Assembly: GCA_019747905.1 (NCBI GenBank)
Contig: JAIEQG010000013.1
Coordinates: 50,482 to 114,481 of the forward strand
DNA from: Burkholderiales bacterium
Lineage (GTDB): Bacteria; Pseudomonadota; Gammaproteobacteria; Burkholderiales; Ga0077523
Direction of reading: 5' to 3'
DNA length: 64,000 bases
Shown here: positions 27,201 through 30,031 of the stretch, piece by piece
Layout of the letters: the number at the start of each line of letters is the position of its first letter
How positions within the stretch are numbered: the first letter of the stretch is position 1
Notes under the pieces: model-generated
The model's database searches: none
Seen by the model: the letters and a program-made list of their open reading frames with translations, nothing else
Told to the model about the DNA's origin: nothing
Position numbers and translations under genes: made by a program

Positions 27201-30031
27201 GCGGTGTCGTCGAAATGCAGTCCGGTCGTCGGCTCGTCGAACAGGAACAACGATTTCGACGCCGTGCCGAGGTTGGCTTCGGCGAGATGACCGGCCAGCT
27301 TGAGCCGCTGTGCTTCGCCGCCCGACAAGGTCGGCACCGGCTGACCCAGGCGCAGGTACTCGAGGCCCACGTCTGCGAGCGGCTGCAGGCGCGCTAGCGT
27401 CTCCTTCGAATCGGCAAAGAAATGCACGGCCTCCGACACCGTCAATTCGAGTACCTCCGCCATGTTCCTGCCGGCCACAGTGATCTCGAGCACTTCCGGG
27501 CGATAGCGCTTGCCGTCGCAGTCCGGGCAGCGCAGATACACGTCGGAGAGGAACTGCATCTCCACGTGCTCGAAGCCGTTGCCGCCGCAGGTCGGGCAGC
27601 GGCCGTCGCCGGAGTTGAAGCTGAAGGTGCCGGGGGTATAGGCGCGCTGCTTCGCAGCCGGCGTGTCCGCGAACAGCTTGCGGATCGCGTCGAAGGCCCC
27701 GACGTAGCTCGCGGGGTTGGACCGGGTGGTCTTGCCGATCGGTGTCTGGTCCACCATCACGACCTCGGCGACGTGCTGATGGCCGCGCAGCTCACGGAAC
27801 GCGCCTGGCGTTTCGGTCGGCTTGCCTTTCTGCTTGAGCAGCGCGGCGTAGAGCACGTCCTGGACGAGGGTCGACTTGCCCGAGCCGGAAACGCCGGTGA
27901 TGGTGACCAGCCGCTCCAGCGGAATCGTCACATCCACGTTCTTCAGGTTGTGCTCGGTCGCACCGAGCAACTCCAGTTTCGGTCCGCGCGCATCGGGCGC
28001 TCGCGGCGCGAGACCGCTGTCGGCACGCTTGCGCCCCGACAGATACGAGGCGGTGAGCGAATCCGGTGTGCGCATCATCTCCTCCGGCGTGCCGAAGAAG
28101 ACGATCTCGCCGCCGCGTTCGCCGGGTCCGGGGCCCATGTCGAGCAGCCGGTCGGCGGCGAACATGATCTGCGGATCGTGCTCCACCACCACCAGCGAGT
28201 TGCCGGCATCGCGCAGCTTCTGCATCACCGCGATCACGCGCAGCATGTCGCGCGGATGCAGGCCGATGGAAGGTTCGTCGAGCACGAAGAGGGTGTTGAC
28301 GAGCGACGTGCCGAGCGCGGTGGTGAGGTTGATGCGCTGCACTTCGCCGCCCGAGAGCGTGCGCGATTGGCGGTCGAGTGTGAGATAGCCGAGCCCCACT
28401 TCGTTGACGAAACCGAGGCGGCTTCGGATCTCCGCGAGCAGCAGGTCGGTGGCTTCGTCGAGAGCGCCTTCGAGGCGCAGGCTCTCGAAGAACGTGCGGG
28501 TGCGTTCCGTGGGCAACAGCATCAGGTCGTGGATCGACAGACCCGGCAGGTGCTCGAGGACCTCGCGCGACCAGTCAACGCCCCGAGGCAGAAAGCGCTG
28601 GTTCGACGGGAGCACGGCATCGGCATCTGCGCTCGTACCGACTCGCCACAGCAGGGATTCCGGCTTCAGGCGCGCGCCGCCGCACGACTCGCACGGGGTG
28701 TAGGCGCGGTACTTCGACAGCAGCACCCGGATGTGCATCTTGTACGCCTTGGTCTCGAGCCAGGCGAAGAAGCGCCGCACGCCGTACCACGTGCCCGGCC
28801 AGGACTTGCTCCAGCTCTTCCATTCCGGTTCGCCCTCCAGCACCCAATGGCGCTGGGCATCGGTGAGGTCGCGCCAGGGCACATCGAGCGGGACGTCGCG
28901 CTTTCTTGCGTACTTCACCAGATCGTCCTGGCATTCGCTGAAACTCGGCGTCTGCCAAGGTTTGATCGCGCCGCCGCCGAGCGTCTTCGCAGAGTCCGGC
29001 ACGATCAGCCCGAAATCGATGCCGATCACGCGGCCGAAACCGCGACAGGTCTCGCAGGCCCCGATGGGCGAATTGAACGAGAAGCGGCTCGGATTCGGCT
29101 CGCTGTAGTGGATGTCGCAGTCGGGGCAGTGCAGGTCGGTGCTGTAACGCCACACTGCGGACGCCACGGGCACTCCTTTCCCCACCGGAACGGTGGGGGA
29201 AGGTTGGGAGCGAGACGGGGAATTCGAGCCGCATGCGGCGAGCCCGTCGAGCGGCGCCGGCATGCAGGCCGGCGCGCACTCCGCAGGAGGGGGCATTCCA
29301 CCGCCCGCAGCATCGTCGCCCACCGGATACACATTCACCCGCCCTTGCCCCACCCGCAGCGCCGCTTCGAGCGCCTCCACGATCCGCGCCCGTTCCGCGT
29401 TGCCCGCCCGGAACCGATCCTGGATGACCTCGACCGCATCCTTCGATCGCGCGTGGATCCGCGAATACCCCTGCACCTCCAGCAACTTCAGGACTTCCTC
29501 TTCCTTGAAATTCTTCGGCACCGGGACCGGGAAGGTCACGATCAGCCGTGGATCGCCCGTCGTCCTGGCCCGTTCCGTAAGGTCGTCGAAGATGGTCTGC
29601 GGCGAGTCGCGGCGCACCGCGCGCCCGCAATGGCGGCAGTGCAGATGGGCTGCCCGCGCGAACAGCAGCTTCAGGTGGTCGTTCAGCTCCGTCATCGTGC
29701 CGACGGTGGAGCGCGAGGTGCGCACCGGGTTGGTCTGGTCGATGGCAATGGCGGGCGGTATGCCCTCGACCCGATCCACCTGCGGCTTGTCCATGCGGTC
29801 CAGGAACTGGCGCGCGTAGGGCGAGAACGTCTCCACGTAGCGCCGCTGGCCTTCGGCGTAAAGCGTGTCGAACACCAGGGAGGACTTGCCGGAGCCGGAC
29901 ACGCCGGTCACCACCACCAGTTCGTTGGTGGGGATCGAGAGGGTCAGGTTCTTGAGGTTGTTCTGGCGCGCGCCGTGAATGACGATTGCTTCGCCGACAC
30001 GGTCGGAAAGAGGGGAATCGGGGGTTTTCAT
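24266..30031 (-). CDS. uvrA: tandem-duplicated UvrA-family ABC ATPase (two UvrA modules in one 1921-aa polypeptide)
   Basis: Start at MKTPDSPL (ATG 30031). There are four Walker A sites: [62 protein letters not shown] and [16 protein letters not shown]. There are four LSGGEAQR signature motifs. Zn-module CxxC pairs occur in both halves. Confidence 0.9.
   Translation of the reverse strand: [1921 protein letters not shown]
29175..29210 (-). repeat. family-1 hairpin unit embedded in-frame inside the uvrA-like CDS
   Basis: The plus strand reads CCTTTCCCCACCG-gaa-CGGTGGGGGAAGG-TTGGGAG. On the coding strand this is CTCCCAACCTTCCCCC..., the same left end as the intergenic copies. It translates as [12 protein letters not shown]. 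Confidence 0.6.

Follow-up and report, generated by a model that had tools for sequence, protein, structure and literature searches.

How does a palindromic repeat of a kind normally found between genes come to lie within a coding sequence, and what allows that sequence to keep it? This question is raised by a gene for a double (tandem two-module) UvrA-like ABC ATPase of an uncultured Burkholderiales bacterium (GenBank assembly GCA_019747905.1, contig JAIEQG010000013.1), which we analyzed within a stretch of 64,000 nucleotides, hereafter called the window. The gene, at positions 24266 to 30031 on the minus strand, harbors an in-frame, lineage-specific insertion in its first UvrA module, at positions 29153 to 29305 of the same strand. 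A first-pass annotation had described the insertion as a repeat element, or a fragment of one, that entered a coding region and has been tolerated as a surface loop, and our analyses support that description. The insert is very probably the remnant of a repetitive extragenic palindromic (REP) repeat, a neutral passenger accommodated by a permissive and disordered loop.

RESULTS

Part of the insertion matches an intergenic repeat family

The insertion comprises 153 nucleotides, i.e., 51 stop-free codons that leave the open reading frame (ORF) intact. It corresponds to residues 243 to 293 of the protein, which end with VPVASAV, and this segment is absent or different in orthologues. Translation of the ORF showed that module 1 has approximately 42 to 47 residues more than module 2 at the equivalent place, in agreement with the roughly 45 extra residues noted initially. 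The G+C content of the insertion is 73%, versus 66% for the window.

The 15-mer TCCCAACCTTCCCCC was found exactly four times in the 64 kb, at positions 24130, 47723 and 50014 on the plus strand and at 29195 to 29209 on the minus strand. The first three matches lie in intergenic hairpin elements, and the fourth is in the double-uvrA gene. The expected number of occurrences is 0.18 even with two mismatches allowed, and none of 100 shuffled sequences gave four matches. Smith-Waterman alignment of the left unit of the intergenic element at 50007 with the insert yielded a score of 42 over 39 nucleotides, compared with a mean of 14.0, a standard deviation of 2.1 and a maximum of 25 for 1,250 native 207-nucleotide segments of the window. 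This places the 39-nucleotide in-gene copy, at 29209 to 29171, 13 standard deviations above the native background. Its orientation is opposite to that of all three intergenic copies.

The likeness to the repeats at 24122, 47716 and 50007 that had been noticed by inspection is thus borne out by the shared 15-mer, and it stands far above the G+C-matched background against which the first-pass annotation had proposed to check it. As for the details of that annotation, CTCCCAACCTTCCCCCACCGttcCGGTGGGGAAAGG is indeed present on the minus strand at exactly 29210 to 29175, but the 12-residue peptide assigned to it is encoded by positions 29209 to 29174, one base away.

The in-gene repeat appears to be a split REP singlet

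Only part of the inserted DNA can be ascribed to the repeat, namely, approximately 45 of the 153 bases, consisting of the 39 nucleotides at 29209 to 29171 and a 6-nucleotide GCCCCC sequence. We considered the whole 153-nucleotide insert as a single element and rejected this possibility, as only the 39 nucleotides align to the intergenic elements, whichever orientation was tried. The entire insertion of 45 to 50 residues is therefore not one element; it belongs to a recurrent pattern in double-UvrA genes, which is described below.

The 39-nucleotide REP singlet core, TCCCAACCTTCCCCCaccgttccggtGGGGAAAGGAGTG (29171 to 29209, minus strand), encodes 13 residues. It contains a perfect 8-bp stem at 29180 to 29198, which extends to a 12-bp stem at 29175 to 29203. 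For the in-gene hairpin, the folding energy is −20.7 kcal/mol (z = −3.4), a value reached by none of 200 shuffled sequences. The 5′ terminus of the REP, GCCCCC (29289 to 29294, minus strand), is parted from the rest by a nested segment of 79 nucleotides (29210 to 29288, minus strand). This arrangement was deduced by alignment with the allele of the closest orthologue, on metagenome contig L081 (see below), in which GCCCCC-A-TCCCAGCC is contiguous; the intergenic copies read GCCCCCATCCCAACC. Aligned in this manner, the window allele consists, in order, of GCCCCC (29294 to 29289), the 79-nucleotide segment, the rest of the REP (29209 to 29171), and a short 3′ part. The nested segment replaces one nucleotide of the REP, for a net gain of 78 nucleotides or 26 codons. 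The alignment points to a REP singlet that was split by the nested segment.

No DNA similar to the nested segment was found in the window, in 200 fetched loci or in a plasmid collection. The segment includes the palindrome GCGCCGGCctgcatGCCGGCGC (29254 to 29275, minus strand), which is unique in the window (0.04 occurrences expected), and it folds at −41.9 kcal/mol, with a z value of only −1.8. It also encodes the hexapeptide APLDGL, which module 2 likewise contains in its corresponding loop. At the DNA level, the two sequences share 15 of 17 nucleotides, and the corresponding score of 24 is below the window-wide background maximum of 30 to 32. Copying between the two modules is possible but unsupported, and we do not claim it. 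No target-site duplication was evident at the in-gene copy; no systematic examination was made.

The insertion lies in a predicted disordered loop of an intact gene

The host ORF is open to position 30136, and its likely start is the ATG at 30031 (MKTPDSPL), which gives a continuous protein of 1,921 residues. Both halves are matched by UvrA equivalog models, TIGR00630 covering residues 16 to 999 and PRK00349 the second half. The Pfam domains UvrA_inter and UvrA_DNA-bind are present, as are four GxSGSGKS Walker A motifs, and UvrA chains are the best matches in the PDB. The protein has two complete UvrA modules, with four ABC nucleotide-binding domains and their Zn modules, in one chain, like the known double UvrA paralogues, a similarity that concerns the host gene and not the insertion. 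Such tandem-duplicated paralogues were reportedly named class III UvrA by Goosen and Moolenaar in 2008. The model for the Chlamydia-type double UvrA, PRK00635, remained below its cut-off (1,142 versus 3,054 bits).

The gene has a G+C content at third codon positions (GC3) of 0.85. Comparison of 456 flanking codons between the window and L081 gave a ratio of nonsynonymous to synonymous substitution rates (dN/dS) of 0.054, with a dN of 0.020 and a dS of 0.37. This low ratio indicates that the gene is functional, that the flanks of the insert are under strong purifying selection, and that the insert has been reshaped much faster than its surroundings. We rejected the idea of a pseudogene on the grounds of the intact ORF and of this dN/dS value.

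We located the insertion relative to the UvrA fold by alignment with Geobacillus stearothermophilus UvrA (2r6f). The query matched the structure up to residue 239 (chain position 259) and again from residue 298 (chain position 266). The gap places the insert where the UvrB-binding-like domain ends, directly ahead of the second CxxC (HCPDCD) of Zn module 1. The HCPDCD motif and LHCRHCG make up a Zn staple at the base of the UvrB-binding-like domain, which is called Zn module 1 here after the published Bst UvrA structure. An AlphaFold2 model of residues 1 to 520, built from an alignment of 47 sequences, had predicted local distance difference test (pLDDT) values of 91 to 97 at residues 120 to 240, of less than 50 at residues 250 to 290, where no secondary structure was present, and of more than 90 from residue 291. 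The low values between 250 and 290 predict that the insert forms a disordered surface loop. The initial expectation of a tolerated surface loop before Zn module 1 agrees with this model, with the 2r6f alignment and with the dN/dS of the flanks.

The insertion is polymorphic among orthologues

A search for relatives in 5.8 billion proteins returned only one with more than 75% identity, P0001 (91%). The best genome matches were metagenome-assembled genomes of Casimicrobiaceae and Burkholderiales, with at most 72% identity; the host itself is a betaproteobacterium of Burkholderiales type. P0001 is encoded by L081, a Logan contig from an independent sample, which carries a different and more complete REP copy, TTGCCCCCATCCCAGCCTTCCCCCgccgccgcGGGGGAAGGAGTAAC, at the same nucleotide position. 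The L081 insert reads GGTGGTTTGCCCCCATCCCAGCCTTCCCCCgccgccgcGGGGGAAGGAGTAAC..., in which a complete REP singlet precedes a (CTCACCC)n tail. This terminal heptamer run, at approximately 3680 to 3720 of the contig, encodes PHPSPLTPHAP, and stretches resembling HPSP.L.PH.P were observed at the same loop in three other loci (L030, L035 and L044).

The next relative, P0002 (75% identity), has a short loop, PMPDDATGETAPSAPTWRYS, and no repeat. Orthologues with 75% identity or less do not have the REP insert, and many loci have a loop of 16 to 24 residues. Overall, in 54 orthologous loci, the loop bounded by EALEAAL and W[RK][FY]S measures 16 to 71 residues; that of the window has 68. The first-pass annotation had proposed to examine whether the insertion is polymorphic, and this is the case, with a different copy in L081 and none in distant orthologues. 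The same annotation had reasoned that its reading would fail if orthologues without the repeat family carried the same insertion; they do not, as shown by P0002 and by the many loci with the short loop. The window, L081 and L078 translate the REP in the same frame, as PPSQPSP...G[EK]G.

Palindromic inserts recur in double-uvrA genes

Many of the long versions of the loop in orthologues read like translated palindromes, e.g., LTPALSP..GGEG, GDRPPF..KGGLSP and TTPPAAQAPLLGEEGS. At the DNA level, they match sites elsewhere in the same genome or in others, often other linkers of the same double-uvrA ORF. We counted hairpins with a perfect stem of at least 7 bp containing CCCC or GGGG and a loop of 3 to 14 nucleotides. 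There were 38 in 323 kb of double-uvrA ORFs (0.118 per kb), 6 in 378 kb of neighboring high-GC3 ORFs (0.016 per kb), and 30 in the remaining 200 kb of intergenic sequence (0.15 per kb). The ratio of double-uvrA to neighboring ORFs is 7.4 (binomial P = 3e-8). A looser count, of any G/C-rich stem of at least 8 bp, gave 0.54 per kb for uvrA and 0.42 per kb for other genes and was dropped as too noisy in DNA of 66% G+C.

By the strict criterion, 15 of the 67 loci have a hairpin in the same loop as the window gene. At least four unrelated palindrome families are represented there, namely, CCyTCCCCC/GGGGGArGG, CCCTCTCCCC/GGGGAGAGGG, CCCCTCCTC/GAGGAGGGG, and long AAATCGGGGACAG... palindromes. As these families are unrelated, their entries into the loop represent independent events. 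More generally, the inserts fall at domain boundaries.

We also examined contigs fetched by the REP terminus alone. Among the matches listed, four lie deep inside long ORFs with a GC3 of at least 0.88. Two of these ORFs are double-UvrA genes (L181, positions 5190 to 11604 on the minus strand, and L158, positions 1 to 3544), in each of which several stretches at other linkers derive from REPs, including an insert of approximately 110 residues made of several REPs in module 2 of L158. The other two code for a sensor histidine kinase (L116) and an HrpA-like ATP-dependent helicase (L132).

Several further observations were made in these genes. In four loci (L040, L011, L078 and L080), one palindrome family is present in three to five copies, distributed over two to four different linkers of a single double-uvrA ORF; in L040, for instance, CCCCTCTCCC..GGGAGAGGGG occurs at ORF residues ~340, 752, 767 and 782 (stop-to-stop numbering). 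The window gene itself contains a second G/C palindrome, CGCCGGCGccagaccgggtCGCGCCGGCG (24571 to 24599, minus strand). The 10 residues that it encodes belong to the last ATP-binding domain, where they lie between the signature motif and Walker B, at another variable site that carries REP-type inserts in L020, L045, L050 and L006. P0025, a JGI protein, has an insert of approximately 75 residues with NHDS/THDS-type peptide repeats (SNHDSGITTHDSETTNHDLRTPHHEARSRNHDS...) in the same loop as the window insertion, which probably stems from a tandem DNA repeat and not from a palindrome. In L052, the double-uvrA ORF runs approximately 260 residues past the usual C terminus into a short-chain-dehydrogenase-like sequence, probably because of a lost stop codon or of an assembly or frameshift artifact.

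The intergenic elements form a widespread REP family

The three intergenic elements are all on the plus strand and all located between convergent genes, with GC3 values of 0.80 to 0.86. The first, at 24122 to 24250, is a cluster of three REP hairpins with terminal inverted repeats, which lies 16 nucleotides past the uvrA stop codon, between uvrA and the gene for Lon protease. The two others are REPIN-like doublets, i.e., two inverted REPs, at 47716 to 47805, between genes for a ketopantoate reductase and a LysR regulator, and at 50007 to 50100, between genes for a cupin and a formamidase-family protein. The elements have inverted 22-nucleotide termini, GCCCCCAyCCyrrCCyTCCCCC, and beyond each terminus come a short G/C hairpin and GGGGGArGG. 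In the two doublets, the inverted termini are GCCCCCATCCCAACCTTCCCCC and the reverse complement of GCCCCCACCCTrACCCTCCCCC. The doublets fold at −66 to −69 kcal/mol and the cluster at −101.9 kcal/mol.

In total, the 64 kb contain seven hairpin units of approximately 40 nucleotides with a 12-bp stem. As expected of REPs, the units are short (~20 to 40 nucleotides), G/C-rich, imperfectly palindromic and repeated. REPs are also mainly extragenic and located 3′ of convergent or unidirectional genes; all three other copies are so placed, and the in-gene copy is the exception. Similarly, the elements at 47716 to 47805 and 50007 to 50100 have the architecture of REPIN doublets, and the in-gene copy is a singlet. 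The termini GCCCCCAyCC... and ...GGGTGGGGGC carry neither the GTAG nor the CGTC tag. The family works like the GTAG and CGTC REPs yet belongs to neither superfamily. No Rfam family matched the window at gathering thresholds.

The terminus of the family was found in at least 120 metagenome contigs, showing that the family is widespread. Most of the matches listed are singlets, composed of the 22 nucleotides, a loop and GGGGGAGGG. The intergenic copies are stop-free in three to five of the six frames, and two of the three have a length divisible by three; survival of such an insert in frame is thus unsurprising.

In several metagenome loci (L182, L192, L111 and L117), the REP 3′ half, GGGGGAAGGAG, lies 6 to 8 nucleotides upstream of real gene starts. 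In L182 (MTAPDPIRIGIVSISDR...) and in L192, whose product begins with a TAT signal (MNRRNFFAG...), it looks like a donated Shine-Dalgarno box. The in-gene copy contains, at 29165 to 29178 on the minus strand, AAGGAG followed after 5 nucleotides by an in-frame GTG (29167 to 29165).

DISCUSSION

Relation to known palindromic elements

In-frame insertions of palindromic repeats are already known, including in uvrA genes. The study of Di Nocera, De Gregorio and Rocco (2013, BMC Genomics 14:522; PMC3733652) describes normally extragenic REPs in frame inside ORFs, often in uvrA, uvrB, uvrD, polA, recBCD, dnaE2 and HrpA helicase genes. The authors proposed flexible linkers as tolerated sites, judged the bias toward repair genes hard to ascribe to chance, and speculated that REP tags modify repair proteins. 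Entries of their supplement include two proteins annotated as “excinuclease ABC, A subunit”: Oter_2709 (1,995 residues, inserts at 638 to 644 and 1601 to 1623) and Tgr7_1444 (1,889 residues, inserts at 865 to 887 and 1761 to 1783). It also lists a REP dimer at residues 224 to 239 of a 999-residue UvrA (Oter_3168) and a REP-tagged HrpA helicase of Opitutus terrae (Oter_0009). Judged by their length, Oter_2709 and Tgr7_1444 are double UvrAs, and the tabulated positions of their inserts correspond roughly to variable linkers of the window-type double UvrA.

The window insert is akin to the REPs of that study, as both are short, normally extragenic palindromes in frame in ORFs of repair genes. However, the published REPs are members of the superfamilies tagged GTAG and CGTC, whereas the window family carries neither tag, and the hosts described are Verrucomicrobia, Gammaproteobacteria and Rickettsia, whereas the host here is an uncultured member of the Burkholderiales. 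As far as it was consulted here, the paper neither points to the double-UvrA paralogue, or to the loop before Zn module 1, as a site of repeated insertion nor compares rates with neighboring genes. What our analysis adds is a different REP family in a different host clade, a well-documented pair of alleles, and quantified recurrence at one loop.

Two other systems are comparable. Rickettsia palindromic elements (RPEs) are described as in-frame in functional genes, translated and compatible with the protein fold (Ogata et al. 2000, through the accounts in PMC10969869 and PMC3184786). Like them, the window insert is an in-frame insertion in a functional ORF that adds an extra peptide. However, RPEs are approximately 105 to 150 bp long, AT-rich and specific to Rickettsia, whereas the window unit is a G/C-rich REP singlet of approximately 40 nucleotides; their sequences are unrelated, and the insert does not belong to the RPE sequence family, making the relation one of analogy only. 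The second system is that of the REPINs, extragenic inverted REP doublets, of which singlets represent decayed remnants and whose cognate REP-associated tyrosine transposase (RAYT), a Y1 HUH enzyme, is encoded by a gene flanked by the REPs (Bertels and Rainey 2011; PMC3116915, PMC3337134). The intergenic copies of the window are likewise inverted doublets with long hairpins, extragenic and repeated, and the in-gene singlet fits a decayed remnant. Unlike REPINs, however, the in-gene copy is coding, and the sequence family differs from the REPs of Pseudomonas and enterobacteria. Miniature inverted-repeat transposable elements are marked by terminal inverted repeats together with target-site duplications; of these two traits, 22-nucleotide inverted termini are present in the intergenic copies.

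A proposed history of the insertion

We propose that a REP copy entered the double-UvrA coding sequence in the common ancestor shared with the L081 organism, or twice at the same point. In frame and stop-free, the REP would have been translated as a Pro/Ser/Gly-rich stretch within a host loop that is naturally variable and disordered and that connects the UvrB-binding-like domain with Zn module 1. In the window lineage, the REP would later have been split by the 79-nucleotide palindromic segment, and its 3′ part lost. The copy may have arrived by REP/REPIN mobilization through a RAYT-type transposase or by templated copying from another REP. The insert would have persisted because the loop tolerates almost any sequence, rather than because it has a role. 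It is thus most likely a neutral passenger, although neutrality is assumed; a function is possible but unsupported.

Several observations weigh against this account. Neutrality alone does not explain the strong bias of such inserts toward double-UvrA genes, and translation of the insert is only inferred. For approximately 100 of the 153 bases of the insert, no source could be identified. In the 64 kb of genome at hand, no RAYT gene adjoins the three intergenic elements: of the seven flanking genes, five code for Lon, ketopantoate reductase, LysR, cupin and formamidase and two are ORFs that match no family, and none is a transposase. Finally, the window and L081 alleles show many differences in their hairpin cores, yet each core is perfectly self-complementary. 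This difference with conserved pairing suggests independent insertions or replacement of one copy by another, and not simple vertical descent with neutral drift.

Alternative explanations

The last two points would be accounted for if the in-gene REP had been copied from another REP by gene conversion or template switching, for example from the cluster beyond the stop codon of its own gene, with the alleles differing through copy replacement. That cluster, beyond the 3′ end of the gene, is only ~5 kb from the insert, and the REP copies of the family vary freely in their cores. Nevertheless, the loop and the intergenic sites share no visible flanking homology that could guide conversion, and the in-gene copy is oriented opposite to all three intergenic ones. 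Repeated insertion is also the simpler account of the unrelated families found in the same loop elsewhere. We therefore consider templated copying improbable compared with insertion of a REP.

A slightly less probable alternative is that the insert has been exapted. It might serve as a selected Pro/Gly-rich linker, as an mRNA hairpin at the domain boundary that affects pausing, processing or stability, or as a site of internal initiation through AAGGAG and GTG (29178 to 29165). The 7.4-fold density of inserts in double-UvrA genes relative to neighboring genes and their location at domain boundaries would be consistent with such a role, as would the hairpin that is perfectly paired in both alleles despite its changed sequence, and the REP 3′ half that serves real gene starts of L182 and L192 as a Shine-Dalgarno-like box. 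The speculation of the 2013 study (PMC3733652) that REP tags modify repair proteins goes in the same direction. However, the loop inserts come from unrelated families, vary in sequence and length (from 0 to approximately 55 extra residues) and are absent from many orthologues, and hence no common peptide or RNA feature is conserved. Moreover, the insert is predicted to be disordered, and the two most closely related alleles have grossly different inserts but flanks with a dN/dS of 0.05.

Lastly, Pro/Gly/Ala-rich linkers are common in high-GC proteins, and an insert of 73% G+C in a window of 66% might resemble a repeat by chance or be joined to the gene by misassembly, but an alignment score 13 standard deviations above the native background, a 15-mer count reached in none of 100 shuffles, a REP at the same site in the independent sample of L081 and a frame intact over 1,921 codons make both very improbable.

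Significance

Taken singly, the insertion is an ordinary example of selfish palindromic DNA that a disordered loop tolerates, comparable to RPEs and other intragenic REPs. It gains value from the wider pattern, in which several unrelated repeat families have independently entered a single loop of a single gene family. The density of hairpins in double-uvrA genes is close to the intergenic level and seven times that of neighboring genes, and the same type of gene bears REPs in two other phyla, according to published tables. In practical terms, the inserts swell UvrA-like proteins with low-complexity segments, which may confuse alignment and annotation.

It may even be that double-UvrA genes act, across phyla, as a specific sink of palindromic repeats and do not merely tolerate them, a hypothesis that we regard as doubtful. 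It is based on the presence of at least four unrelated REP families in the same loop, and of REPs at other linkers, in Burkholderiales, together with the unrelated GTAG REPs in UvrA genes of approximately 1,900 to 2,000 residues in Opitutus and Thioalkalivibrio. If the hypothesis is true, REP insertion would be favored at this locus, or the REP-derived linkers or mRNA hairpins would be selected to tune a repair-like ATPase, and the puzzle of why intragenic REPs favor repair genes would gain a concrete, testable locus. The double UvrA represents a convenient natural system in which to study how proteins absorb peptides derived from mobile DNA, and whether tolerance or targeting lies behind the bias of intragenic REPs toward repair genes.

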